From assembly GCA_963668175.1 (NCBI GenBank), contig OY764159.1, forward strand, positions 3,360,001 through 3,424,000: 64,000 bases of DNA. Reading direction: 5' to 3'. Below the pieces are notes generated by a model. The model saw nothing but the letters and a program-made list of their open reading frames with translations. It did not search any database and was not told where the DNA came from. Both the position numbers and the translations under genes were made by a program. The stretch is from Syntrophales bacterium. Lineage in GTDB: Bacteria; Desulfobacterota; Syntrophia; Syntrophales; PHBD01. Positions 27,180 to 45,448 of this stretch are shown one piece after another (position 1 is the first letter of the stretch; every line of letters begins with the position of its first letter).

Positions 27180-27534
27180 GGGGGCGTCACGGTTTCGACG
27201 GGGATAGTTGAAGCTGTAGAAGCGTACCGAGGTTCCTACAGGCCTCGTTAAACAGGTAGGAAAATCATAATCGCAAACGATTACGAATACGCCTTAGCCG
27301 CTTAGTCGGCTAACGTCCTCCCGGCTTTGTCCGTTGGGCCGGATGAGGGCGTCATTTAGACGGAATAACCGATTCCCCTCGCCTGGCGGGGATGAGGCGA
27401 AAACCTTACAGGCTAGCGACGGTTGAATCCTGCCCCTGGGAGCCTTCCGGAGCGAAATTAAATCAGGGAATACGTACGTAGAAACTGCAGTGGAATGTTT
27501 TCGGACGCGGGTTCGACTCCCGCCGCCTCCACCA
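27180..27534 (+). ncRNA. ssrA: tmRNA
   Basis: GGGGGCG/CGCCTCC-ACCA acceptor stem with G3-U, GGTTCGACTCC T-arm, tag ANDYEYALAA* at 27273-27305. Confidence 0.97.
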
Positions 27535-27540
27535 TAATAC

Positions 27541-28788
27541 TTAATTATTATCAGCAATTACATTATTATTTTCTACCGCAACGCTACCGCAATTTTCCAT
27601 GCCCTGCTGGTGTGGCATCTGATAACCGGGTCGCCGCATACTCAACACCTGCCCTATCCTTTTTGACGTCCTCTTTGCGTATCGTTTGGTCATCTCTGAT
27701 GTTTTATGCCTTAAAACGGCTTGCACAAAGGACTCATCTTTTCCTTCATCGAGCAGTTGGCACCCCAACGAGTGTCGGACGGCATTGTATAGTTTAATTC
27801 TTATTCCTGCTTTTCCACAGGCCTCATGCCATACCTTATTAAGATTCTTGTTTGTATAGGGCTTTCCATCTTCTCGGACGAATAGAAACGGTCCTGTGTG
27901 TTTTGGCAGGTTATCAAGAATCTCCTTTGCATACGGTGTTAGTTCCAGCTCTCCCACTTCGCCCGTTTTTGTCTTTTCATTTAGATCATTGTCCGAAAAG
28001 GCACGTTTAATATAAACTTTCCCATTTTTCACAGCGTCTTTTTTGATTGCTCGGACTTCTCCAATCCTAGGTCCATATTCCATTGCAAATCGGAAGATAT
28101 AAACATCCCTTGTCGGGACATGGGATAGCACGAGCTCTTGCTGTTCCATGGTCAGGTATTCAATCTCCGATGGTTTCGGCATACTCATCTTCGGAAAAGG
28201 GGGAACTCGTTTGATCTCTTCATTTGAGAAAGCCCACCTTACCATTGTTTTTAAGGCACCGAGTTTATTGTACGCGCCTTTTTCTTCTAACTTATTTTTA
28301 AGAAATTGTTGATATAAAACCAGCTCGGCTTTCCGAAATTTTCTAATATCCTTATCGGCTCCGAAATAGGGGATTGCATAATTGACGATACAAGTTTTGT
28401 AATCACGTTTGCATTTCTTGCCAGCGTCGCATTGTACAAGCCAAGTCTTGTAATATTCGCCTAGACTTAGTGGATTGCTGGGACGGAATGTACGTGGGTC
28501 AAATGCTTCCGGATCTCTATCGATATCTTCCTGAATGGCGGCCAGGAGCTTCTTGCCGTTTTCGTAATGTTTGATCGGGTGCCATTGGCCCTGAATGAGT
28601 ACCGACCAAAACTTTTCGATGGTACCCTTCCAATACAACTGGACAAAAAAGCGATTACCGTGCTTTTGGACGGTCCCGCGAGTAAAACCCATGACATGCC
28701 CTCCAGCTGGGTTTATACGGATATTATCCGAAACTGTCAAGGCCTTGGGCTGCTCTCTGACTTCCCCTGTCGATTGAATCGGCTCCAT
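27541..28788 (-). CDS. Tyrosine recombinase / phage-type integrase
   Basis: GPRIGE (R), KTG (K), YNAVRHS, LRH...TKRY (H, Y); start could be the later MGFTRG. Confidence 0.9.
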   Translation of the reverse strand: MEPIQSTGEVREQPKALTVSDNIRINPAGGHVMGFTRGTVQKHGNRFFVQLYWKGTIEKFWSVLIQGQWHPIKHYENGKKLLAAIQEDIDRDPEAFDPRTFRPSNPLSLGEYYKTWLVQCDAGKKCKRDYKTCIVNYAIPYFGADKDIRKFRKAELVLYQQFLKNKLEEKGAYNKLGALKTMVRWAFSNEEIKRVPPFPKMSMPKPSEIEYLTMEQQELVLSHVPTRDVYIFRFAMEYGPRIGEVRAIKKDAVKNGKVYIKRAFSDNDLNEKTKTGEVGELELTPYAKEILDNLPKHTGPFLFVREDGKPYTNKNLNKVWHEACGKAGIRIKLYNAVRHSLGCQLLDEGKDESFVQAVLRHKTSEMTKRYAKRTSKRIGQVLSMRRPGYQMPHQQGMENCGSVAVENNNVIADNN

Positions 28789-28860
28789 TAATTTATCCCT
28801 CTACCCATATATCCACGGGGTGTCGCCCTCTGGAGGCAAAAAAAGTGAACTTTTTTTCAT

Positions 28861-29030
28861 ATAATTTTTTTTTAAGTGTGATTTTGGACAGAAAGACGAG
28901 TTAAAAATTTTTTAAGTGGCTTTTTGCAGGATAATTATTTTTTAAGTGCGCTTTTGGGCCAAAAGTCGATTTAAATATTTTTTATCTGACGTTTTTGCGT
29001 TTTTTGAAAAATTAAGTGGCGTTTTTGCGA
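28861..29030. repeat. AT-rich imperfect 70-bp tandem repeat with phased TTAAGTG boxes
   Basis: Boxes at 28872, 28912, 28942, 28982 (TTATCTG) and 29012. Confidence 0.8.
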
Positions 29031-29061
29031 ATAATGAAAATGGGCTCTTAAGGGCCGTTTT

Positions 29062-29090
29062 GTGACACGCATAATATAGTTTATTATACT
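29062..29090 (+). promoter_or_regulatory. Sigma70-like promoter facing the non-coding region
   Basis: GTGACA(29062-29067)-N17-TATACT(29085-29090). Confidence 0.65.
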
Positions 29091-29096
29091 TACTAG

Positions 29097-31050
29097 CTGT
29101 GTGACACCTCAGAACCCCCTTTCATCCCCTTCGATGATGCCCATCATCCCTGGGGATGACACCCGTCTTCGTCTCCCCTCAAGTTCGACCCATAGCCTCC
29201 GTTCCTACCGCCCCTCCGGGTCAGTTTTGCCGGTACGGTCGGCTGCCCTCTGCCTTGGCAGTCCGGTCAGCAGTCCGACCCCTGGTCTTTACCTCAGATC
29301 CGACACAAGCCCTACTCAGCTCCGACCCCACCACTCCCCTGCCCACCCCCAGGGTTTAAGGCTCGCCGCCTCTGGTTCGACCCGGGGTTTGGGGCGCTGA
29401 CAGGCAAGCGGGAGCGGCCTTTTGAAGCGCCTTAGGATGCTCCCCGCCCGGCGGGATAGCCGGGCTCGTCTTGGACAGCCTGCCGGATGGCTCCATAACC
29501 ACCGGAGGTCACAAACCGGAGGTGCCTGATTTCAGGTCCGATCTCAGGTCCGACTACAGGGCGAACAGGTCCTGAAGCCACCAAGGGTGGTCGAATGGAT
29601 CTTGAGCGCCGGATGGGCGACGACCGGAAAAGGCCTGCGAAGCCTAAGGGCAGCCCACAAGGCAACCTGAGGTGAAGCTGGCCCCGAGGGAGGAGCTAGC
29701 GAGACCGGAAGGCGCTTGAGGGGGCCCTGGCGGCTCAGCCGCAGGCTTAGCCAAAGGGACCCGGAAAGCGCCTGGATGTCGGAAGCGGACGGGGATAATG
29801 CTTCTCAGACCGACAGCATGGCGGATGCTCCATAACCGCCGCAGGCGCCTGTAAAACACAGAAACTCCAGTCCGACACCTGTGCCCCTGGCCAGGTCGTG
29901 ACCAGCACCTCGGCGAAGTTAGCCTCGGGAATCGTCATCAGAACCTCGCCGAAGTGAACCGGACGGCTTGGGTGACTGCCTGGTCTCAGACCGACCCGGC
30001 CTGCATGTCTGCCTGCACACTGGCAGCATGTCTGGCCAACTAGCTCAGCTCCGACAGCCACTCTCGCCGGACTGGGAGAGGTGTAACCTCGGATAGCCGG
30101 GCGAGGAACGGGAGAAGTACCGGACCTGAGAGGTAGGGGTGCCAGCGCAGCGAACCCAGGGGCGAAGGTCCAGGACTTCGGGCTGGGGGGGTTGGCCTGC
30201 AGAATCGAGGTGCAGCCGAGGTGAGGCAGGCCGTGTCGAAGGCCCCCTGGATTGAGATTCGACACTGTCTCAGGCAATCTCAGGGTGACACACACTCAGG
30301 TCGATTTCAGGTCCGACTCCAGGTTTCAGGCGGCGCTGGCGGGGACAGAAACCTGATGCCTGATCTCAGGTCCGATCTCAGGTCCGACCCACCAGCCCGG
30401 CGAAGTGCTCCGCCTCGATCGCGGATCAAGATCTACGATCGGGATCGGCGATTGACAGGAGCTCGGAGACCGGTCAGGCCTGCCGGAGGGATAACACCCT
30501 CAGGTCCGACACGAGCCGAGGGGTGGCCACCGACAAGTATTGCGAGTCCTGGCCGGGAAGGTAACATAACGATGTGTTATGTTTAGCTGAGAGAGGGCAT
30601 CTTGCCGTTACCGGATCTGCCAGCGGCAGCAAGACATGTTGGATAAGGCGCCTTATCTGACATGCCGAATGAAGCGACTTCCCGCATGGCGAGCAAATTG
30701 CCCAGGGGCACGCACATTTTCAGAGTCCAGGGTGCCCCCCGCCCCACTGCCCCAACAAACGACACCCCGAGGCGATCGCTGTACCCACCACCCACCAGCA
30801 TGGCGAAGGGATTCCGGCCCCTTACGTGGCAACAGGAAGCATGGGGGCTCGCTCTGCACGCCCCCCTCGCACCGGCTTGCCACGTTAGTCCGCCCGGCGC
30901 ACTTGCAGTCCCGATACACGAGGGCGGCAGGGTCTGCCAGCGTGGCGGAAGGCCGCCGGCCGCGGCCGGCGCCGGGAGTGCCCGGCGGCGTTGCCGTGAC
31001 CAGGCCGGACCAGGACCGATGCGGGAAACGCAGAGAAAAGCCGGGATGCA
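29097..31050 (+). ncRNA. Candidate ~2-kb structured non-coding RNA or element
   Basis: No credible ORF, dense hairpins with mostly plus-strand G-U pairs, repeated CTCAGGTCCGAC motif, upstream promoter. Confidence 0.45.
29178..30510 (+). repeat. Dispersed direct repeat CTCAGGTCCGAC, about 15 copies
   Basis: Exact copies at 29543, 30377 and 30499; variants listed in findings. Confidence 0.88.
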
Positions 31051-31614
31051 GTGGGTGTGATGTGTGTATGTGTATTAATAAGTATATAAATATATTAACT
31101 AATTCAACTAAGATATAAAGAGAGAAAAGATATATATAGACCCTGAAGACGGCCCTGAAAAGGGCGGGGTGGTCGAACGCACGGATTGGGAAAACGAGGA
31201 CAAGCGTGTGACACCGTGAGCACGACCTCATGCTGACGGAAATCGCCCACTTGTGGGGGCATGGCCGAACGCACGGAAGGGGAATTGAGACGCGGTCGTC
31301 ATCCGTACCGGGAGGAATTCAGATGTGACCCGGGGGGGATCTTTTGAGAAAATTCACCTCTCTCGAAACTCCTAGGCGGAAGATTTATGGATGAAACATG
31401 CAATCTTGGGAGGGATATTTTCCCGGTGAGAGAGGTAATCCAATTCTTCCTGTAATCAAGATCGTCCCTTTAGACATTGACGTTTAACAGTAAGGTTGGT
31501 TATCCATAATCTTCGATAAAGGTTTTGTTTAGATTTAATCATCTTGATCTCAGAATCAAAGTATGTTAACCGAAGTTGTAAATATGATCCTTACAAGCTC
31601 TTTCATAGTGAATA

Positions 31615-31710
31615 ATTTTGGTGACCCCGAGGAGGAGTAGAATAGGGAATCCCGTGTGAATCGGGAGCGGACCCGCCATTGCAAGCAGCGACGAAACCCT
31701 GCTAAGAGCT
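31615..31710 (+). promoter_or_regulatory. Cobalamin riboswitch-like element, apparently 5' half only
   Basis: GGTG...AATAGGGAA-TCCCG-TGTGAAT-CGGGA-GCGGACCCGCC-ATTGCAA; no 3' B12 box seen. Confidence 0.55.
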
Positions 31711-31786
31711 GGATGTCGGGGAACGGTTTCAAACCCCGAGTTTGAATAGTCTGCGATGAGCATACAAAATCCCCGAGGAGACGATT

Positions 31787-32041
31787 ATGGCGAAATTATT
31801 CGTTTTTCACAGTGGGAATCCCTCTTGAATGTCCTGTAGAAAGGCTATCGGGGTAGCCGAGGCAATGAAGAAGAAGTTTTCTGAGAAACTGGAACTGCTG
31901 ATTTACACAATGGATTCAAAAGAAGCGGAACCTTATCATTTCAGAAGCGCGACCAATGTTCTGCTGGATAAAGAACTCATACCGATTGACATAGCAACGA
32001 ACAAAGACAAAATGGATGCGTTTCTGTCCTCGAGACTGTGA
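31787..32041 (+). CDS. Putative selenoprotein with UxxC motif (thioredoxin-like), 84 aa
   Basis: GAGGAG RBS, ATG 31787, in-frame TGA 31826-31828 giving U-M-S-C, downstream SECIS-like hairpin. Confidence 0.78.
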
Positions 32042-32214
32042 GAGCATATTTTGACGAACACAATGCTGCTAAGAAGCAATAAAATCTTCCTACCCCTCCG
32101 AATATATAATACGTAAAGTAAGAGCAACGCGGCTCGAAGGTACGCCGTATCGGCTGCACAGGTACGTTAGGTAGCATTACGCTAGAATATAATCGATAAT
32201 GCTGATCCATCGTC

Positions 32215-33366
32215 TTAGAGAGCAAGCACCGAGAATACTACACCGACGAGTATGATCCAGTGAAGCTCGACTCCGAAAAGCAGAGTGGCAAAAGCGCCAC
32301 TGGACAAAAATATGCGGGGAAGGTCCCATGAGATGTTCAGGGCAAAGCGTATGGTCACGGACAAGAGCAGCCCTACGAAGGAATATAGCACTCCCCTAAG
32401 CGCTCGATTGAAATACGGAGAATGACTCAGCCTGTCATAATAGGGAACCATTGTTACCAACATAAGGAATGACGGGAGAAAGATGAAAATCGTCGCTATG
32501 ATCGCACCCGCGATACCGTCGCGGAGATAGCCGATGAACGTTGCTGTGATGACGATAGGCCCAGGGGTGATCTGGCCGAGAGCGATGCCATTCAGAAAAG
32601 TGAGTCCATCCATCCAGTCATGCCTGTGAACAACTTCGTTAAACATGAGCGGTAGAGAAGAAAACCCCCCGCCGAAAGCGAACAGGTCAATTCTAGCCAT
32701 CAAGAAAGCCAGATCGAACCATTCTCTTCGCATCAGAAATAGCAGAGCGAATGCCGTTGTCAGAGATGACAGAAGGTACACTAGAATCTTAGGGTCGTAC
32801 GATTTCCTCTTCGATACAACCGCAACGGCTGCCGGTTGTTGACTGTCGAAACCGAAGCCGCAGAGGGCTGCGATGAGGATAACGAGGATGGGATGGATTC
32901 CGAAACCAAACATCGAGGCAGCCAAAAGAGCGATGATCGCACCCTGCCAATTCGTCAGCCAACTCCTGCCGAACGTAAACGTTGCATGAGCTACGATGGC
33001 TACCACTATGGCCTGAAGACCGTTGAAACATGAGACGGTTACAGGTAATGTCCGTGTATGCATATACAGGGCAGAAAGAGCCATCATGATCAGGAAGGCT
33101 GGCAGACCGAAGCCGATGAAACTGGCAGCTGCTCCCCTCAGACCGTTAGATTGCAGCCCCACATAGGCCGTAACTTGCATGGCCGTGGCACCAGGAATCA
33201 TCTGGCAGAGAGTCACACCAGATCTGAAGGTCGAATCCTCCAGCCATTGTTTCTTCTCAACGACCATCGTGCGGATGTGAGCGATCATGGCCGGGCCGCC
33301 GAAAGCCGTCAAGCCGAGCCGGAAGAATGACAGAAAGAGGTTCCTTACCGTTGGCGTTTCGTTCAT
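32215..33366 (-). CDS. chrA: Chromate efflux transporter (long-chain CHR)
   Basis: FF.LG..AFGGP, Q.IPG, second FGGG and ITPGP repeat. Confidence 0.92.
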   Translation of the reverse strand: MNETPTVRNLFLSFFRLGLTAFGGPAMIAHIRTMVVEKKQWLEDSTFRSGVTLCQMIPGATAMQVTAYVGLQSNGLRGAAASFIGFGLPAFLIMMALSALYMHTRTLPVTVSCFNGLQAIVVAIVAHATFTFGRSWLTNWQGAIIALLAASMFGFGIHPILVILIAALCGFGFDSQQPAAVAVVSKRKSYDPKILVYLLSSLTTAFALLFLMRREWFDLAFLMARIDLFAFGGGFSSLPLMFNEVVHRHDWMDGLTFLNGIALGQITPGPIVITATFIGYLRDGIAGAIIATIFIFLPSFLMLVTMVPYYDRLSHSPYFNRALRGVLYSFVGLLLSVTIRFALNISWDLPRIFLSSGAFATLLFGVELHWIILVGVVFSVLAL

Positions 33367-33376
33367 CGATCGTCGC

Positions 33377-34615
33377 TTACAGTCTCCGGAGAATATCGAC
33401 GGGCTTCATCTTTTCCATCCGCCGGCCCATGAAATAACTTGCCAGCCAGCCCGCAGCAAGCGAAAGAGCCAGAGAAGCGGCCGTGAGACCGGCGGAGAAG
33501 CTGACCGGCAGACGGACTGTCTTCGCCACGGTGCCGGCCTCCTTAGCGAAAGCCGGTGTGAGATTCACCTCCCACGGCGTGGAAACGGGAATGGAAAGAT
33601 AGCCTAAGCTGTAGGAAATCAGATAACCCGCCAGAATGCCGACGATACCCCCGATAATGGATTGCAGGAAGACTTCACCCATGAGCTGTTTTTGAACATC
33701 GGAGCCCGTCCAGCCAACGGCCTTCAGAACGCCGATCTCCTGGGAGCGCTCGACCAAGTTTCCGAGCATGGTCTTGATGATCAGGAAAACCGCGCCGCAA
33801 AGGGCCACGAGAGATACGACCAGGGAAAACTGATCGGATATCCGCGAGACGCCGCCCATAACCTCTAAAAAGGAATCGGAGCTGGTCACGGTGAAACCGG
33901 GAAGCATCCGCAGAATGTCTTTCTTGGTCTGATTCAGAAGCGATGGATTCTTAAGACGCAGATAGACGATATTCACGCTCCCGGCACCATTCTCCAGGAG
34001 CGATTGGGCATCAGCCAGGGATAAATAGACGTTCGATGAAGCAATCTGCGAGCCCTCTTTTATCTCCAACAGGCCCACAATTTTAAATACATGGCCAGCA
34101 ATCGTCAGCGAATCTCCCAGCTGGCTGTTATGGAACTTGGCGTAGTGTTTTTCCAGAACGGCCTCGCCTTCTCTTTCAGGAAAACGCCCCTTGGCAAGCC
34201 AGTCTTTCACTTTGACGGGCCCCAGGCTCGGTTGTGTCAGGTCCACGCCCATGATTGTCCGGAAACCTCCCCGGTCGAACTCCCACAGGAGCAACGATCC
34301 GGCAATTCCCTCTGTGCCGGAAAGGCCTCGCAGCTTATCGATATCCTGGGAAGCCAGAAGCTGGCTGGAGAACGGCACTCTTACCCCGCGCATAGTCGGG
34401 GCGGGCTGGGTGGAGTCTGCCGTGCGCTTTTCCGGCCGCTGGATGACAAGATCGGCTCCCAGATTCTTGAAAGGCAGGCTGACTGCCTCCTGATAGGCGG
34501 TGGAAACAGCGTTAATGGACACGAACAGGGCTATCCCGACCGCGATGCCAAGCACGTTGACCAACGTCCGATGGCGATGATGACGAAGCTCGTTCAGTAT
34601 GTATCGATAATGCAT
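33377..34615 (-). CDS. MacB/FtsX-type ABC permease
   Basis: GIAVG, ER..EIGVLKAVGW, 4-TM layout. Confidence 0.9.
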   Translation of the reverse strand: MHYRYILNELRHHRHRTLVNVLGIAVGIALFVSINAVSTAYQEAVSLPFKNLGADLVIQRPEKRTADSTQPAPTMRGVRVPFSSQLLASQDIDKLRGLSGTEGIAGSLLLWEFDRGGFRTIMGVDLTQPSLGPVKVKDWLAKGRFPEREGEAVLEKHYAKFHNSQLGDSLTIAGHVFKIVGLLEIKEGSQIASSNVYLSLADAQSLLENGAGSVNIVYLRLKNPSLLNQTKKDILRMLPGFTVTSSDSFLEVMGGVSRISDQFSLVVSLVALCGAVFLIIKTMLGNLVERSQEIGVLKAVGWTGSDVQKQLMGEVFLQSIIGGIVGILAGYLISYSLGYLSIPVSTPWEVNLTPAFAKEAGTVAKTVRLPVSFSAGLTAASLALSLAAGWLASYFMGRRMEKMKPVDILRRL

Positions 34616-34622
34616 GGTCTCC

Positions 34623-35030
34623 TCATTTCTTGCGGGTTGCCTGATCCAGGGCTTTTCTAAGATCGGCCATCGTCCACTTGCCCTGGAAGAAAGCAGGGCC
34701 TGAGCCGGACGGGAAACCGGTGAAATTGATTTCCTTTCCCTTCAGGGGAAAGGACGATTTGCCGTCGATCCAGATGACCAGGGGCACGTGCTGACGGATG
34801 CCTTTTCGGGCCATGAAATTCTCCCCCTCGGGCGTATCGAAATCATACCACGATGCATTAACCTTATTTCCATATCCGGCCAAAACGGTCTTAATGTCCT
34901 TGATGGTGGACATAAGCGGACCGTGGTTCATATAGAGAATTTCAACGTTCGTGCCTTGCGCCGCACCGGCTGTTAAGGGCAAGCAAACGACGGCCAGCAT
35001 TAATGCACAGAACAAAACGATCTTCTTCAT
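34623..35030 (-). CDS. Secreted hypothetical protein
   Basis: Signal peptide; translationally coupled within the ABC operon. Confidence 0.75.
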   Translation of the reverse strand: MKKIVLFCALMLAVVCLPLTAGAAQGTNVEILYMNHGPLMSTIKDIKTVLAGYGNKVNASWYDFDTPEGENFMARKGIRQHVPLVIWIDGKSSFPLKGKEINFTGFPSGSGPAFFQGKWTMADLRKALDQATRKK

Positions 35031-35695
35031 GAGAGCACCTCCCCGTCCTGCATCCGGATGACCCGCTCGGCGGTCGCGGCTAGATCCGGCTCGTGTGTTA
35101 CCATGAGCATCGTCATGCCCTTCTCCTTATGCAGTTTGTTTAGAATTACCATGATGGCATCGCCGGTGGCTGAATCCAGATTGCCCGTCGGCTCGTCGGC
35201 AAAGACGATTTTGGGATTGTTGATGAGAGCCCTGGCGATGGCAACTCTTTGCTTTTCTCCTCCGGAAAGGGCGGCGGGCAGGTGATCCAGACGATGCCCC
35301 ATCTCCATCCGGTCGAGAATTTCCGACGCCCGCCGCTGTCGCTCCTCTTCCGGCATCCGGACGGGAAACAGGGGCAGCGCTACGTTCTCCCAGGCGGAAA
35401 GCGTAGGTATCAGATTGAAGGATTGGAAGATGAAGCCGACGTTCTCCCGGCGAAACAGAGCCAGTTCATCTTCCGTGGCTTCTGTGATCTCTCTGCCGTT
35501 GATGCTCACTTGGCCTTTGGTCGGGCGTTCCAATCCGGACAAGAGGGACAGGAGCGTCGTCTTGCCGCATCCCGACTTTCCCACCAGGGAAACGAACTCG
35601 CCCTCCCCTATCTCGATCGATACGTGCTTGACGACTTCCAGGTCACCGTAAGCCTTGGTCAGATTGGCGCCCGTCAGTATATTGGGTCTATTCAT
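35027..35695 (-). CDS. ABC ATP-binding protein (LolD/MacB-like)
   Basis: GKSGCGKTT, LSGGEKQR, ADEPTGNLD. Confidence 0.93.
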   Translation of the reverse strand: MNRPNILTGANLTKAYGDLEVVKHVSIEIGEGEFVSLVGKSGCGKTTLLSLLSGLERPTKGQVSINGREITEATEDELALFRRENVGFIFQSFNLIPTLSAWENVALPLFPVRMPEEERQRRASEILDRMEMGHRLDHLPAALSGGEKQRVAIARALINNPKIVFADEPTGNLDSATGDAIMVILNKLHKEKGMTMLMVTHEPDLAATAERVIRMQDGEVLS

Positions 35696-40610: not shown

Positions 40611-41030
40611 CTATTTAACGACAAGAACCGAACAGGGCGCCAGACGGACCAGGCTCTGGCAGGTGCTCCCCATGACGCGGTCATAGAGCGCCGAACGCCC
40701 CATGAACCCGATCACGAGCAAATCGAATCCGTATTTCTTCACGAACTCCACGATGGTCTTCACCTCATGGCCGACGATGATATGGACTTTAACTTCGACG
40801 CCTTCGCGGGCTGCCATCTCCCGTGCCTGTCTTCCCGTTTCGCGAAACCGATTGTCGGCCTCCGCCGTTTCTTCAATGACCTCGCCGATGGTTCCGGCAT
40901 ACGGGGGAACCTCCTCCACGGAGATAACGTGCAGCTCCGCGCCACACAGCTTCGCGAGGCCGATGGCTTCGTCAAGCGCCTTGAATGCCCCTTCTGATCC
41001 GTCCATACCGTGCAATATCTTCTTATGCAT
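40611..41030 (-). CDS. Universal stress protein
   Basis: KKIL...DGS, DLLVIG, GST, APCSVLVVK. Confidence 0.93.
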   Translation of the reverse strand: MHKKILHGMDGSEGAFKALDEAIGLAKLCGAELHVISVEEVPPYAGTIGEVIEETAEADNRFRETGRQAREMAAREGVEVKVHIIVGHEVKTIVEFVKKYGFDLLVIGFMGRSALYDRVMGSTCQSLVRLAPCSVLVVK

Positions 41031-42168
41031 GACCGTTATCCTCCATGTTGTTCGTCTCCGGGTGATACCATCGCTGGGCGATCATGGTCGGAACGACGGC
41101 GCTGCCTATCACCGCCGCAACCAGTATCGTATACTGATCTTGATCAATGATGTGATTCGTGAGGCCGAAGAGCGCGGCAATCGTACCGAAAGTGAGTCCG
41201 GTGCACATCATAAGCGTCGTGTACATCCCCTCTTTTTTTCCGAAACGGAACAGCCTGGTAAGCGGCCAGATGCCCACAAACTTGGTGATCACCTTGACCC
41301 CCAGGAGGAGCATGATCAGACCGAACGCCGTGGTCATGGCGCCCAGTTTGACCAGCGAGCCGGCCTTCAGAAAATAGAACGGCGTCAGGAAGACAAACGC
41401 TCCCGCCCGCATACGCTGGGCGTGAACCCGCTCAGCAAGGAAAAAAGGCGCCATGACCATACCGATCAGATAAGCGGGAAGAACAGCCTCACATTTCGCC
41501 ATATCCCCCAGTCCTCCCAAAAGAAATAGAATGAGAAACACGGCCTTGATCTTCGGTTCGCTGATGCGGTCTCCCACCTTGCGGAAGAAAAACGGTAGAT
41601 ATCGCGGCAGGAGCCACATCGTCACAGCAGTTGCCACTGCAAAAGCGATCAGCCACAGGTTGTAATTGGCAAAGAGGACGCCCAGAACCAGTACTGTGCC
41701 CAGATCGTTGATGAAGCAGGCGGCCAATAATATTTTTCCCAGCTCGGTGCGATTAAGCCCGCTCTCTACCATCACGGCATAAACGACGGCCACCGATGTT
41801 GTAGAAAGGGCAAGTCCGGCAATCTGCGCCTGCGGCCAGGACCAGCCGGAGACATAGTGGGTGAATAAAAGCACCCCGCAGAAGGGAACGACGAAACCGG
41901 CGATGCCGATACCGGCGCTCGACCAGAAATTCTTCCGGATGACTTCGTGATCCACCTCGGCGCCGGCGAGAAACGTAAGCAGGATGGCGCCGACGCCGGC
42001 CAGATAATTCACCCATCCGTTTGGTGTTAGACCAAAGAAATTGCCGCCAATAAACCCGATGAATATTTCGACCAACGCCACCGAAATGGCAACCCTTATG
42101 GAGATAAGGGACGACAATAGGGCAAAACCCATCCAGATCGCGGATGTAAACCAGACATTTTCCACCAT
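41023..42168 (-). CDS. Cation:proton antiporter (Na+/H+ exchanger family)
   Basis: About 12 TM segments, STTSVAVV, FINDLG; start reset to ATG 42168 after AAGGAG. Confidence 0.9.
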   Translation of the reverse strand: MVENVWFTSAIWMGFALLSSLISIRVAISVALVEIFIGFIGGNFFGLTPNGWVNYLAGVGAILLTFLAGAEVDHEVIRKNFWSSAGIGIAGFVVPFCGVLLFTHYVSGWSWPQAQIAGLALSTTSVAVVYAVMVESGLNRTELGKILLAACFINDLGTVLVLGVLFANYNLWLIAFAVATAVTMWLLPRYLPFFFRKVGDRISEPKIKAVFLILFLLGGLGDMAKCEAVLPAYLIGMVMAPFFLAERVHAQRMRAGAFVFLTPFYFLKAGSLVKLGAMTTAFGLIMLLLGVKVITKFVGIWPLTRLFRFGKKEGMYTTLMMCTGLTFGTIAALFGLTNHIIDQDQYTILVAAVIGSAVVPTMIAQRWYHPETNNMEDNGHA

Positions 42169-42234
42169 AACAACGACTCTCCTTGTGTGATGAACTCCCG
42201 CGCCGTCAATCTGAAACATGACGTCGCGATATAC

Positions 42235-42280
42235 GAAGGAGTCATCAGCTCAAGGAGCAGTTAAGGTGGACCCCATCACC
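42235..42280 (-). promoter_or_regulatory. Fluoride riboswitch (crcB motif), downstream aptamer of a tandem pair
   Basis: GGTGATGGGGTCCACC-TTAACT-GCTC-ctt-GAGC-TGATGACTCCT. Confidence 0.88.
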
Positions 42281-42284
42281 GGTT

Positions 42285-42329
42285 CAGGCGTCATCAGTCC
42301 CAGGGACATTGCTGGCGGACGCCATCGCC
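42285..42329 (-). promoter_or_regulatory. Fluoride riboswitch (crcB motif), upstream aptamer of a tandem pair
   Basis: GGCGATGGCGTCCGCC-AGCAAT-GTCC-ctg-GGAC-TGATGACGCCT; GGCGTC/GACGCC pseudoknot. Confidence 0.85.
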
Positions 42330-42340
42330 GATCCGAAGCT

Positions 42341-43624
42341 TTACGATCCTTTCTGGAAAGGATTCTCGAAGATGGCCGATTTGCCCAACTCCGCCTCGAT
42401 CTCCAGCAGGCGGTTGTACTTGGCGATACGCTCGCTCCGGCAGCCGGAGCCGGTCTTGATCTGCCCCCCGCCCATGGCGACGGCAAAATCGGCGAGGAAG
42501 GTGTCCTCCGTCTCCCCGGAGCGGTGCGAGACGACGAATCCCCAGCCCGCCTTGCGGCAGAGATTGATCGCCGCCATCGTCTCCGTCACGGTGCCGATCT
42601 GGTTGAGCTTGATCAGCACGGCATTGGCCGCCTTCTCCCGGACGCCCTTCTCGATGTATCGCGCATTCGTCACAAAGAGATCGTCGCCGACGACCTGGAT
42701 TTTGTCGCCCGTTTGGGCCGTCAGTTTCTTAAAGCCTTTCCAGTCGTTTTCCGCGTGGCCGTCTTCGATGGATACGATGGGATACTTTTTGATCCAGCCC
42801 TGGTAGAAGGCGACCATCTCGTCGCTCGTCTTCTTTCCCTGGCCTGACTTGGCGAGATGGTATGCGCCTTTTTGATAAAAGGAGCTGGCTGCCGGGTCCA
42901 GGGCGATGGCGATGTCGCGGCCGGGCTTGTACCCTGCCTTCTCGATGGCCTGGATGATCAGCTCGCACGCCTCGTCGTTGCTCTTCAAGTTGGGCGCAAA
43001 TCCCCCTTCGTCGCCCACGGCGGTGGCGTATCCCTTGCCGCCCAGGATTTTCTTGAGGGCGTGGAAAGTCTCGACGCCGTACCGGAGCGCCTCGGCAAAG
43101 GAAAGGGCGCCTATGGGCATCACCATGAATTCCTGGAAATCGACGCTGTTGTCGGCATGCATCCCGCCGTTCAAGATGTTCATCATGGGGACGGGAAGGC
43201 GCAGGGCGCCGAATCCGCCCAGGTAGGCGTAGAGGGGGATATCTGCCGCGTGGGCGGCCGCCCGGGCGACGGCCATCGAGACGCTGATGATGGCGTTGGC
43301 GCCGAGTTTGCTCTTGTTCGGCGTCTTGTCCAGGAGGATCATCAGGCGGTCGATTTCGGCCTGATGCGTCGGGTCCATGTCGATGAGGACCGGTGCGATG
43401 ACTTCGTTGACATGGGCGACGGCTTTGAGGACGCCCTTTCCGCCGTAACGGGTCCGGCCGCCGTCGCGCAGTTCCATCGCTTCGTTCTCTCCCGTCGAAG
43501 CGCCGGACGGGCAGGACGCAGACGCCCTGATGCCGTTGTCGAGGACGACCGTGGCCTTGACGGTGGGATTACCCCTTGAGTCCAGGATTTCCATGGCCTG
43601 GATGGCTTTGATTTTTCGGATCAT
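42341..43624 (-). CDS. eno: Enolase (island-borne copy)
   Basis: [35 protein letters not shown]. Confidence 0.97.
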
Positions 43625-45309
43625 GAGTCACTCCTTTCCTGATGGCTTGGCAGCTTGGCCAATTGATTTTCGAGATCGGCGATAACCTTTCTTATCTCTT
43701 CCGTCCGGCCGTGGGCGCCGGCGATAAGCGCCTCCATGGTCGCGAACTCTTCCTCCACGTAAAGGACGGCCTGCCGGCGCATGGCGTCGATGGCCCTGTT
43801 GATCCGGGTTTCCCACTGGGAGGCGACGCGCGACAGGTTGACCTCCACCTCCCAGGGGATCTTTTTTACGAAGCTCCTTTCAAAGGCGCCCCGGAAGATA
43901 AACATGGGGATCAGAAACCAGACGAGGTCGAGATGATAGCCGAAGGCCCTGGGAAAGCTCGTGTCCGGATGGTCGGGTTCCGCGACGTCGATCCGCCATT
44001 CCACTTCGCCGAGGCCGACCCCCAGCACCTTACGGAGGTTGTCGTCCAGAAGCCTGCGGAAGAACTCGAGCGAGCGGATCAGGCTGGCGTGCGCCTTCTT
44101 GAGGGTGCCATAGAAGTGCCTGTGCTCCGCCGCGGAGATCTTCCTCATCTCCTCGTCCATGGCCTCCGATACCCATGCCTCGTACCTGCGTGTCAGCGTC
44201 CAGAGGTTGCCCCGCCACGACGGCATCTCCGTGCGTAGGGCATCCGTTATTTTCCTGCACAGGGGTGCCTCGAAGGGCGTCAGGTAATTCGCAATCAGAG
44301 TCCGCGTCTGGCCCTGGATATCCCGCGTGACGATCGACATCTCCTCCCGGACGATACCGGCGTTGACTCGTTCGTCCAGGATCATTTTCTTAAGCGCGTT
44401 GCGGTCCCGGTCGGCCGCAAGGGAGGCCTGCAGGGCGACTTGCAGGTAGGCCAGGCATTCCCGAACCAGGGAGCGCCCCTTGTGCCGGGCGATGTGGCCG
44501 AATTCGGAGGCCCTGTTGGCCACGAGTTTCCGGAACAGCTCCGCCTCCAGGATTTCTCTCCAGGATTCCGCAGCCGTCCGCGTGGAATAGAGATAGATGG
44601 GAAATTCCCTGTTCAGCTCCCGCGCCAGGGTCTTTCGGAAGAACGCCACCACCTCGTCCTGTTGGTCCGGCGTCAGCAGGTCGGCCTTGGTGAGCAGAAG
44701 GACAATCCTGGGCGTATGGGCCGTAAGCTCCCTGATGAGCGAAAGGTCGTGTTCGGAAAGGGGGCGGTCGGCGCTGATGGCGAGGATGGCGGCGCCGACT
44801 TCCGGCAGCCAGTTTTCCGACGTCGCCTTGTGGTACTGGAAGACGCTGCCCAGCCCCGGCGTATCGACGATGCGGAGCCCTTCGAAGGCTGCAAGGGTTG
44901 GAAGCGTGCAGTCGATGACCTCCACGTTTTTCTCATTGGCCGGGTTTTTCGCTTCGGACGTGTAGTCGGCAAGGGCGTCCAGCGGTATCGACGTCTTTTT
45001 CCCGTCAAAATGCGTGACGACCGCCTGTTCCGTTTCCCCGTACTGTAATCTCGTAATGGCCGTGGTGACGGGGATAACGCCCACGGGCAGGATGGGCCTT
45101 CCGATCAGGCTGTTGATGAACGAGCTCTTGCCTGCCTTGAACTGCCCGAGGACGGCCACGTCGATTGGCGCGTCTTCGGCAAGGAGGCTGCGGTAGGCGG
45201 CCAGGGAACGCTTGAGGGAGGCGATCTGAAAATCGTCCGCGGCGGACGCGACGGTCGCGTGTATCTCCTTGAGGAGGGACAGGGATGGATTGTCGGCTGC
45301 GTAAGCCAT
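43621..45309 (-). CDS. Bacterial dynamin-like GTPase
   Basis: GQFKAGKSS (G1), PVT, DTPG (G3), TKAD (G4), helical C-terminus. Confidence 0.88.
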
Positions 45310-45337
45310 AAAAAAAACTCCTTCAGATCGTCTCTGT

Positions 45338-45412
45338 CAGGAGTTATCATCCCTTGATGTAGGCCTTAATGCAGGCCTTGCTGCGGGCGGTTATTAGGTG
45401 AACTCCATCACC
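45338..45412 (-). promoter_or_regulatory. Fluoride riboswitch (crcB motif)
   Basis: GGTGATGGAGTTCACC-TAATAACCG...GATGATAACTCCT; GGAGTT/AACTCC pseudoknot. Confidence 0.88.
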
Positions 45413-45419
45413 TTGTTTT

Positions 45420-45448
45420 TTTATATTTATCTTAATCCTTTTTGTCAA
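45420..45448 (-). promoter_or_regulatory. Sigma70-like promoter of the fluoride operon
   Basis: TTGACA-N17-TATAAA ending 7 nt before the aptamer. Confidence 0.75.

Follow-up and report, generated by a model that had tools for sequence, protein, structure and literature searches.

The genome of a Syntrophus-like bacterium contains, at a tmRNA locus and adjoining an integrase gene, a 1.3-kb non-coding stretch in which the 12-base motif CTCAGGTCCGAC and its close variants occur 16 times on the plus strand, with one further copy inverted. The array occupies positions 29178-30510 of the window (the whole 64,000-nucleotide stretch of DNA that was analysed), and its 16 co-oriented copies are 11-261 nt apart. 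Our preferred explanation, which is a tentative one, is that the array belongs to a long non-coding RNA in which the motif is a multivalent binding or pairing site.

Three copies of CTCAGGTCCGAC are exact (29543, 30377 and 30499). Five others have one mismatch (29293, 29315, 30044, 30306 and 30365) and four have two (29178, 29370, 29531 and 29865), while three are one base shorter (CTCAGACCGAC, CTCAGGTCGAT; 29804, 29985 and 30295) and one, at 29271, is a 9-base partial copy. Three pairs of copies are adjacent (29531/29543, 30295/30306 and 30365/30377), and TCCGACA is present in five copies. The inverted copy lies at 30119-30130 on the minus strand; the plus strand there reads ACCGGACCTGAG, of which 10 contiguous bases are complementary to the motif, and from the genome-wide rate about 0.06 such matches would be expected by chance in the array stretch. 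A preliminary description of this DNA had reported the cluster, and all of its coordinates, together with the inverted copy, check out in the sequence. It had also described the spacing as irregular and the reading frames as mixed, and had concluded that the array is neither a peptide repeat nor a CRISPR array. We reach the same conclusion, because the start positions of the 12 full-length copies cover all three frames (4, 2 and 6) and Tandem Repeats Finder detects two 12-base doublets only. A CRISPR array is rejected also on the length of the repeated unit, which is 12 nt rather than the 24-40 nt of CRISPR repeats, and on the spacing.

The motif is strongly concentrated in the array. The window has 19 matches with up to two mismatches, 13 of them inside the array stretch, and none of 100 dinucleotide shuffles of the window reached 19 (mean 6.4, largest 15). 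On both strands of the 4.57-Mb genome, the array stretch holds 3/3 of the exact copies, 8/28 of those with up to one mismatch and 13/382 of those with up to two, compared with about 0.1 expected for the last class; AGGTCCGA occurs 6 times against 0.02 expected. An equal frequency across the genome, which the preliminary description had named as grounds for giving up its claim, is thus not what is found, and the confinement of the exact motif to one locus also means that it is not a dispersed selfish repeat. Outside the array, copies with up to one mismatch are divided between the strands (9 plus, 11 minus), with no skewed genome-wide distribution. In a self-comparison of the stretch, the repeated part is the motif, which is non-palindromic, with a few flanking bases; the exceptions are two duplicated modules, one of 35 nt and one of 48 nt. 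The intervening segments are mutually unrelated and often form hairpins. As only the 12-mer is conserved, selection or copying seems to have acted on the motif itself, rather than through recent duplication of large blocks.

The array lies in a genomic island, where it is preceded, from the tmRNA gene onward, by the tyrosine integrase gene, AT-rich repeats and a promoter-like site oriented towards it. The tmRNA gene (ssrA; 27180-27534, plus strand; Rfam RF00023, 218 bits) provides in its 3' end the attachment site of the island. The integrase gene (27541-28788, minus strand; Pfam PF00589, E 3e-16; PHROG 1 integrase) is convergent with it, and relatives of the integrase likewise adjoin tmRNA genes. 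In three homologues (46-53% identical) the N-terminal 100 residues match PF12167 (Arm-DNA-bind_2) above the cut-off, and in one pairwise alignment the matching region of the 53% homologue corresponds to about residues 75-106 of the window integrase, whose own N-terminus has no Pfam match. By these matches, the integrase family carries a predicted arm DNA-binding N-terminal domain. Among solved structures the integrase has only distant matches of Xer type. One relative, 42% identical, was found in a scan of genome contigs, on a contig cut at the gene; in a sample of the phylum the best relative is also 42% identical and has phage genes upstream. Closer relatives, 57-69% identical, were obtained at the protein level only (P0003-P0031), some of them encoded on contigs of 40-198 kb.

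The nearest motif copy (29178) is 1.64 kb from the end of the tmRNA gene (27534), with the integrase gene between them. The tmRNA end recurs as a 22-23-nt copy 84 kb downstream and, in decayed form, another 0.7 kb beyond that, placing the right end of the island far outside the array. Apart from the integrase gene, no island gene adjoins the array; from 32 kb onward the genes appear to be ordinary ones for metabolism and transport, no candidate partner gene is encoded near the array, and five relatives share no genes downstream of the tmRNA gene. The sequencing runs listed for this DNA, none of them recorded as RNA, come from the same organism and show 0 differences over 27508-35055; a run with a low share of it (X5) contains identical fragments.

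The left flank of the array has relatives in an integrative and conjugative element (ICE) of another genome, G021, which carries TraG_N and Integrase_1-like genes (the Integrase_1-like ORF has no match among solved structures). Directly upstream of the integrase start codon is a 30-nt block (28810-28840, minus strand) that is probably a promoter or operator. It is invariant at ATATCCACGGGGTGTC.CCCTC in 4/4 aligned copies, namely the one in the window and three on contig G021:C5, one of which is upstream of the integrase of that ICE. The block pattern has an exact match in G021 only among 401 genomes; matches with 1-2 mismatches occur about as often as in controls, and the ones examined, in G092, G131 and G341, look coding by eye. 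Next, at 28842-29035 on the plus strand, an AT-rich sequence (TTTTTTAAGTGnC.TTTT; repeat families D3 and D9) is directly repeated six times at intervals of 30-39 bp; about 55 nt of this region are 82% identical to the repeat region of the G021 ICE. These repeats resemble iterons or operators, and that label fits them better than it fits the array. No second iteron cluster or promoter block was found elsewhere in this genome, and neither pattern has a match in viral contigs.

A sigma-70-like promoter, GTGACA-17-TATACT, is located at 29062-29090 and points into the array. This candidate promoter agrees with the consensus at 10/12 positions and is the only strong promoter-like site; it is on the same strand as 16/17 motif copies. 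The GC-rich stretch then begins with a strong hairpin at 29122-29159 (18-nt arms, 83% complementary), for which the windows that contain it have z-scores of -4.2 (plus) and -3.9 (minus), and the inter-motif analysis gives -3.6. The genome has two copies of GTGTGACACC, both on the plus strand: one at 29099-29108, where transcription would be expected to start, and the other at 31206-31215, 2.1 kb downstream and just past the GC-rich stretch. The idea that these are a target-site duplication was dropped because the G021 sequence continues across the left junction as the window does.

Just 3' of the last motif is a conserved hairpin element (30555-30700, plus strand) common to two copies in genome G029 and one in G518. 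It consists of a small hairpin at 30563-30583, a stem, a hairpin CATGTTGGATAAGGC/GCCTTATCTGACATG at 30635-30664 and then GCGACTTCCCGCA. In the four-sequence alignment, three pairs of the 30635-30664 hairpin change on both sides and stay paired, and its G-T wobbles are on the plus strand; the element has no Rfam match. The following segment, 30701-31050, is a tail that lacks the motif and is GC-rich (up to 0.75); it contains GC-rich palindromes and open frames that match no family, and it ends at an AT-rich segment (31050-31130). A group II intron was considered, using models of domains D1-D4 and D5-D6 and a search for a reverse-transcriptase ORF, and was rejected; the window has no model match at E up to 10 and no reverse-transcriptase domain. 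One of the G029 copies of the hairpin element has a sub-threshold D1D4-6 match beside it, on the opposite strand and beyond the part in common.

The array stretch has a GC content of 0.60-0.64 (0.75 in the tail), between AT-rich flanks and in a genome of 0.558, which is unexpected for decaying DNA. Its first 300 nt are C-rich and G-poor, with a GC skew of -0.19 to -0.44. There is no coding signal: no open frame matches Pfam, PHROGs or NCBIfam, the 20 stop-to-stop frames have no family match at E up to 1 except three at chance level, and codon-usage scores are -0.10 to -0.29, compared with +0.26 +/- 0.10 for native genes. Across 28700-31700, Rfam gives no match at the gathering threshold and, at E up to 10, only two chance matches to miRNA models, a chance flpD match and a cobalamin riboswitch at 31602; no tRNA or tmRNA model matches within the array stretch, and the idea of tRNA-like units was dropped accordingly. 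No intrinsic terminator was found downstream.

Predicted folding of the stretch is mildly more stable than that of shuffles, with a mean z of about -0.9 (-0.87 plus, -0.85 minus). The preliminary description had placed the copies between hairpins. This holds in that several inter-motif segments fold well (29996-30043, z -3.2; 29100-29177, z -3.6; 30389-30498, z -2.3) and several stable hairpins begin within a few bases 3' of a motif copy; as a general property it is less clear, as the mean z of the 12 inter-motif segments is -1.35 versus -0.93 for the same segments shifted by 30 nt, and is equal on the two strands (-1.35 and -1.32). Fold stability that is equal on both strands permits no call of strand and is no proof of RNA structure. 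The predicted unpaired probability of motif bases on the plus strand is 0.40 versus 0.41 for the rest of the stretch, a value reached by 58% of random placements; on the minus strand it is 0.34 versus 0.40.

Conservation in homologous elements, the other expectation of the preliminary description, is not borne out, because no homologous array was present in anything searched. DNA searches did not find it in 41 relatives or 301 genomes of the order, nor, with the left part of the stretch, in 401 genomes of the phylum, and blastn against phage and plasmid records returned no array. A tandem-motif pattern had no match in viral contigs and 36 rows, at 35 loci, in metagenome contigs, none similar beyond the motif; L030, L049, L040 and L036/L038 among them are repeats of other kinds in which CAGGTCCGA happens to occur. 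In six islands, the integrase is 50-70% identical to this one; none has a copy of GGTCCGAC, two stray matches with up to two mismatches, both in one locus, are the only ones, and the place equivalent to the array is occupied by protein-coding genes. Two of the six (G591 and G552) are small, with a 27-28-nt copy of the tmRNA end at each boundary, and G591 has AT-rich repeats at the integrase promoter and at the far att end. In sequence comparisons, relatives are thus seen for the flanks only: the AT-rich repeats and integrase promoter block in the ICE, and the covarying hairpin at 30635-30664. After the same AT-rich repeats, G021 has a GC-rich non-coding stretch with a co-oriented heptamer of its own, TCCGGCA, present four times in 480 nt; the array motif is absent from G021, and local alignment of the two GC-rich stretches is at chance level (score 22; shuffles mean 19.9, maximum 31). 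A full-text literature search for CAGGTCCGAC gave, among the matches listed, none related by title and abstract.

The preliminary description had suggested a protein-sponge RNA, processing sites or iteron-like DNA sites, and judged by sequence all three are candidates. How might the array work as an RNA? Rightward transcription from the promoter-like site at 29062-29090 would produce a long non-coding RNA belonging to the tmRNA-anchored island and encoded by the GC-rich stretch at about 29100-30700. Sixteen copies of CUCAGGUCCGAC, most of them either immediately 5' of a local hairpin or between two, would make this RNA a multivalent platform, with repeated docking sites for one trans-acting partner. 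The partner may be a protein or, since the motif is 12 nt long, an RNA complementary to it, and it could either be titrated by the RNA or cut the transcript at each site. We infer the transcription, its strand and the existence of the partner. Counting for an RNA are the 16/17 copies on the strand of the promoter-like site, the conservation of the 12-mer amid unrelated sequence, the lack of coding signal, the high GC content, the inter-motif folding, the covarying hairpin that closes the stretch and the TCCGGCA heptamer of G021; in addition, irregular spacing of 11-261 nt over 1.3 kb fits RNA platforms better than cooperative DNA arrays. Counting against it are the motif accessibility, the mild and strand-equal folding, the C-rich, G-poor first 300 nt, and the lack of a terminator, a nearby partner gene and a homologue. 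A more specific version, which we regard as a long shot, is that the RNA, 1.5-2 kb long, presents 16 copies of a 12-nt word resembling the 5' half of the tRNA/tmRNA T-arm plus T-loop (GGTYCGAC), and thereby acts as a decoy or pairing platform for a T-arm-recognising factor or a complementary guide RNA.

It is also possible, if somewhat doubtful, that the array has no function at all. It would then be a non-coding remnant of a mobile element with a lost interior, in which the 12-mer was multiplied by slippage, small duplications and gene conversion and has been tolerated. The orphan status of the array in the 41, 301 and 401 genomes, the phage and plasmid records, the viral contigs and the metagenome pattern scan is consistent with this, as are the protein-coding genes at the equivalent place in the six islands. 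The two doublets and the 35- and 48-nt modules demonstrate ongoing local duplication, the flanks are a patchwork of pieces that also occur in the unrelated G021 ICE and G029/G518 hairpin element, and the array has neither excess RNA structure nor an accessibility signal. However, neutral decay would erode motif and surroundings alike, and here the motif is conserved while its surroundings are fully diverged; moreover, 16/17 copies are co-oriented, the genome has no exact motif elsewhere, and high GC in non-coding bacterial DNA speaks against long neutral residence.

Alternatively, the motif copies could act as double-stranded DNA. In one such scenario, which we think unlikely, they are sites for a protein supplied in trans, e.g., by a helper conjugative element or plasmid; such a protein could serve partition or replication, be an accessory factor of a relaxosome, or be a directional DNA translocase guided by co-oriented sites. 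Sites of this kind are normally direct repeats, and the three pairs adjacent at 11-12 bp are as expected of neighbouring protomers. The array also follows iteron-like AT-rich repeats common to an ICE with TraG_N conjugation genes, the equivalent stretch of that ICE has the related TCCGGCA in place of TCCGACA, and strand-equal fold stability suits DNA palindromes as well as RNA. Yet the spacing shows no helical phasing, no rep, par, mob or translocase gene adjoins the array, no second iteron cluster or promoter block marks a helper element in the genome, and the motif is non-palindromic and absent from G021. In the other scenario, which is improbable in our view, the adjacent integrase itself uses the copies, as extra core-type half-sites or as pseudo-att sites derived from the tmRNA T-arm, to regulate or buffer recombination. 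The array is 0.4-1.7 kb from the integrase gene, and the arm-binding domain in the integrase family leads one to expect accessory sites. Over 15 positions, the motif with its 3' flank (CTCAGGTCCGACCCC) has 11 in common with the beginning of the att identity block (CGCGGGTTCGACTCC), and by the motif matrix the att-block site ranks in the top 2.7e-4 to 9.5e-4 of genome positions. Over all 51 tRNA/tmRNA genes the mean best score is 5.1 bits, compared with 0.6 for random 76-mers, and in the highest-scoring genes the best match is mostly on the T-arm. Copy 29370 is 10/12 identical to the att start, and the 21 nt before it share 76% identity with the adjacent part of the tmRNA end (D10). This att likeness was noticed post hoc, however, with an estimated chance probability of 0.01-0.04, and T2, A4 and C8 are fixed in the motif but differ in att, which indicates that the copies are not decayed att copies. 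The six islands with related integrases lack the motif apart from the two stray matches; at least 1.6 kb, including the integrase gene, separates the array from the att core; 16 sites over 1.3 kb far exceed known sets of arm sites; and the AT-rich repeats at the integrase promoter, where G591 also has AT-rich repeats, are better arm or operator candidates.

The array may be compared with several known systems. RNAs of the CsrB/RsmZ type are sponges for a protein, with many irregularly placed short GGA motifs among hairpins on one strand. The array is likewise one non-coding locus with many irregular motif copies amid hairpins on one strand, but its motif is 12 bases rather than GGA and is not in predicted loops or accessible stretches, and the locus is about four times longer, lacks an Rfam match and is on a mobile island rather than being a core regulatory locus. 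In P4 CI / P1 C4 RNA immunity, a leader transcript contains repeats complementary to a small RNA cut from that leader. As with these leaders, and with RNA sponges and target mimics encoded by prophages or islands, the array would give a leader-like transcript with short repeats, and the inverted copy offers 10 contiguous bases for possible pairing with the 16 direct ones, although a single inverted copy is only marginally unexpected; the array differs in having 16 targets rather than 2 and in lacking a downstream gene that it could control. Iterons of plasmids and arm-type sites of integrases are similar in being short non-palindromic direct repeats beside a replication or recombination module, some in adjacent pairs; the array differs from the former by its irregular, long spacing and the lack of a rep gene in the neighbourhood, and from the latter by its absence from islands with homologous integrases and its distance from the att core. 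The clt/TRS sequences of Streptomyces, KOPS and SRS are co-oriented 8-bp motifs read by FtsK-like translocases. The array motif is also short, asymmetric, co-oriented and clustered on a mobile element, but is longer, with no translocase gene nearby and no genome-wide skew. Two further candidates were rejected: an integron cassette array (attC), given co-oriented copies with only one inverse and an integrase score of 52.6 against the 220-bit integron/XerA cut-off, and a type III toxin-antitoxin RNA (ToxI-like), given no regular tandem array and no adjacent ORF with a family match. The idea of a restriction-site decoy, based on TCCGAC, which we take to resemble a type IIL restriction site, was dropped.

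Finally, we note what the array would mean under these different readings. If non-functional, it would be a clean example of local motif amplification in a non-coding remnant of a mobile element, and a warning against reading function into strong local enrichment by itself. If it is functional, a genomic island contains a long non-coding locus in which one 12-base word is repeated many times. Few multivalent platforms of this sort, whether RNA or DNA, are known in bacteria, and we know of none described in syntrophic Deltaproteobacteria-like lineages. A T-arm-like decoy RNA, if that version were true, would be an RNA sponge from a mobile element, of a type so far undescribed. More generally, a functional array would offer a defined sequence bait for its RNA- or DNA-binding partner.

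The array of co-oriented copies of the 12-base motif CTCAGGTCCGAC and its variants, at 29178-30510, is a real and strongly non-random feature, and the data searched contain no relatives of it. Re-inspection of the window sequence over 29178-30510 bears out the preliminary description: the + strand carries three exact copies, five with one mismatch, four with two mismatches, three shortened by one base and one partial copy of 9 bases, with a single inverted copy at 30119-30130. The window contains 19 matches at two mismatches or fewer, 13 of them in the array, and a total of 19 was reached by 0 of 100 shuffles of the window. Across the 4.57-Mb genome, the array's 1.3 kb holds all three exact copies, 8 of the 28 copies with at most one mismatch, and 13 of the 382 with at most two. 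No other k-mers of the stretch are nearly as over-represented as the sub-words of the motif (AGGTCCGA is observed 6 times versus 0.02 expected), and among local 9-mer clusters in the window theirs is the strongest. The information content of the motif peaks at TCCGAC, with almost none in the flanks; the surroundings of the copies are unrelated to each other, and only the short word is conserved. The starts occupy all three reading frames, and Tandem Repeats Finder detected no more than two 12-base doublets. Contigs from sequencing runs containing the organism are identical over the whole array.

The window corresponds to G000:C1:3360001-3424000, and the local order begins with smpB, the tmRNA gene (27180-27534) and a convergent tyrosine integrase gene (27541-28788). 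Upstream of the integrase start are a conserved 30-nt block (28810-28840), six AT-rich TTTTTTAAGTG-type repeats spaced by 30-39 bp (28842-29035), a sigma-70-like site facing right (GTGACA-17-TATACT, 29062-29090) and, before the array, a strong hairpin (29122-29159). The array is followed by a conserved hairpin element (30555-30700), a GC-rich tail without the motif to about 31050, an AT-rich segment, and a cobalamin riboswitch on the + strand (31602-31720). Only small open frames follow the riboswitch (e.g., 31829-32041, 70 aa), and a chromate transporter gene lies nearby on the opposite strand. Beyond are ordinary transport and metabolic genes. Two fluoride riboswitches are found there on the minus strand, one (42229-42289) just upstream of an Na+/H+ exchanger-family gene (41023-42219, minus strand) and the other (45331-45421) upstream of a dynamin-family GTPase gene (43621-45309, minus strand) and then an enolase gene (42341-43624, minus strand); a stretch resembling this enolase gene (52-63% translated identity) adjoins smpB instead in four relatives. 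An exact copy of 22-23 nt of the tmRNA 3′ end is located 84 kb downstream of the tmRNA gene, outside the window (genome 3471474-3471495; window coordinate 111474), with a decayed, older copy 0.7 kb further on (genome about 3472190-3472235; window coordinate 112190). The two copies indicate serial integrations at ssrA; the tmRNA-anchored island, or island stack, is therefore large, with the array at its integrase end.

Judged by its sequence, the GC-rich stretch appears to be non-coding. Its GC content is 0.60-0.64, rising to 0.75 in the tail, compared with 0.558 for the genome and 0.30-0.46 in the immediate flanks. Open frames in 29050-31250 gave no Pfam, PHROGs or NCBIfam matches, nor did 20 stop-to-stop frames at E up to 1, chance-level hits aside. 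In codon usage the open frames score between -0.10 and -0.29, compared with +0.26 ± 0.10 in frame and -0.53 out of frame for long native genes.

DNA searches of 41, 301 and 401 genomes returned no homologue of the array, with matches only to short flank pieces, and phage and plasmid records likewise yielded none. The tandem-motif pattern gave 0 matches in viral contigs and 36 in metagenome contigs, none with similarity beyond the motif, and several of the 36 are unrelated satellite or REP-like repeats. TCAGGTCCGA is part of the repeat units of long tandem arrays on two metagenome contigs, SXGQ01134594.1 and Ga0310342_100683916; apart from that word these show no relation to the window, and they are probably repeats of a satellite-like kind.

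Searching proteins with the integrase gave 227 homologues at E up to 1e-20, of which some 30 share 57-69% identity with it. An Arm-DNA-bind_2 domain was matched in three scanned homologues (46-53% identical), and in the 53% homologue it corresponds by pairwise alignment to approximately residues 75-106 of the window's integrase. At E up to 1e-60, the integrase has a match in 14 of 339 genomes of the order, the window's own among them; in five the identity is 66-70% along most or all of the gene, and one further match is partial at 69%. Six integrase loci were compared, from G591, G563 and G670 (68-70%), G484 (66%), and G552 and G036 (50-51%). Four of them (G591, G563, G670 and G552) align with the window's tmRNA gene immediately beyond the integrase, and in these four the genes upstream of the integrase encode restriction and defence proteins, an RHH regulator and unknown proteins. 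In G591 and G552, a tmRNA-end copy of 27-28 nt located some 5 kb upstream of the integrase (L143 5016-5043; L146 4900-4926) bounds a small island of roughly 6-7 kb; their integrases share 70% and 51% identity with that of the window, and the cargo is restriction or defence (Mrr-like; Vsr with a fused C5-methylase/BsuBI-PstI endonuclease). Conservation of the motif in homologous elements, a check proposed in the preliminary description, came out negative: GGTCCGAC occurs in none of the six loci, and matches with up to two mismatches amount to two strays in one locus. It follows that the array does not belong to the conserved machinery of this integrase.

Several flanking elements do recur. The AT-rich repeats and integrase promoter block are found on one contig of G021, which is an ICE, as it carries TraG_N, an Integrase_1-like ORF and a tRNA-Lys-linked integrase. 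The 30-nt block, ATATCCACGGGGTGTC.CCCTC, is invariant in four copies (window 28810-28840; L008 14512-14579; L009 6075-6137 and 6510-6556); it is located upstream of the integrase genes of two unrelated elements, and resembles a promoter or operator common to both. The TTTTTTAAGTG-type repeats are common to the window (28842-29035) and the ICE (L008 5500-7100, minus strand), where an IS3-family element interrupts them. The GC-rich stretch after these repeats in G021 does not align with that of the window; it contains four copies of TCCGGCA, all on one strand. GTGTGACACC has two copies in the whole genome, both strands considered (29099-29108 and 31206-31215, both +), 2.1 kb apart and bracketing the GC-rich stretch, while 3 of 21 genome copies of TGTGACAC and 4 of 100 of GTGACAC are at this locus. 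Because GTGTGACACC includes a 9-bp palindrome, GTGT-G-ACAC, its copies may be operator sites; a target-site duplication is argued against by G021, which reads through the left junction. The non-coding element at 30555-30700 recurs in two other genomes of the order, G029 (two copies, adjoining MazF/HTH toxin-antitoxin genes) and G518 (one copy); the positions outside the window are L116 5935-6370 and 7500-7870 (minus strand) and L114 about 1440-1600. Pairing in its main hairpin is kept through three double changes among four sequences, and no Rfam family matches it; possible identities are an undescribed small RNA and the end of a mobile element.

What the array does can be read in four ways. 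The motif copies might be pseudo-attachment sites for the integrase, since the motif and its 3′ flank match 11 of the first 15 bases of the attachment-site identity block, which form the 5′ strand of the tmRNA T-stem and the T-loop. A matrix from the 16 copies ranks the attachment site among the highest 2.7e-4 to 9.5e-4 of positions in the genome; the T-arm is the place of the match in most of the 15 best-scoring of 51 tRNA/tmRNA genes, and the mean best score is 5.1 bits over all 51 versus 0.6 for random 76-mers. However, this likeness was spotted post hoc (estimated chance probability 0.01-0.04), the motif and attachment site differ at fixed positions, and the related islands are without the motif, so we regard this reading as improbable and the last of the four. 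DNA sites for a trans-acting protein are a less doubtful but still unlikely explanation; the AT-rich TTTTTTAAGTG-type repeats make stronger candidates for iterons, or for arm or operator sites of the integrase. Ranking above these, although itself rather unlikely, is a functionless local amplification of the motif in a remnant.

The reading we place first, tentatively and at well under even chances, is that the array specifies a putative long non-coding RNA. In its favour, the copies are co-oriented with the promoter-like site and irregularly spaced, a short word is conserved amid unrelated surroundings, the GC content is high, hairpins often start directly after a motif copy, and the hairpin 3′ of the array covaries, with wobble pairs on the + strand. 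Other observations are neutral or point the other way: 150-nt windows surpass shuffles in folding by only 0.87 (+) and 0.85 (-) standard deviations, inter-motif segments have z values of -1.35 and -1.32 on the two strands versus -0.93 for shifted segments, exposure of the motif is not predicted, and a search for a terminator found none. If the array is transcribed in this way, a long non-coding RNA would display the motif copies as a multivalent site for docking or pairing.
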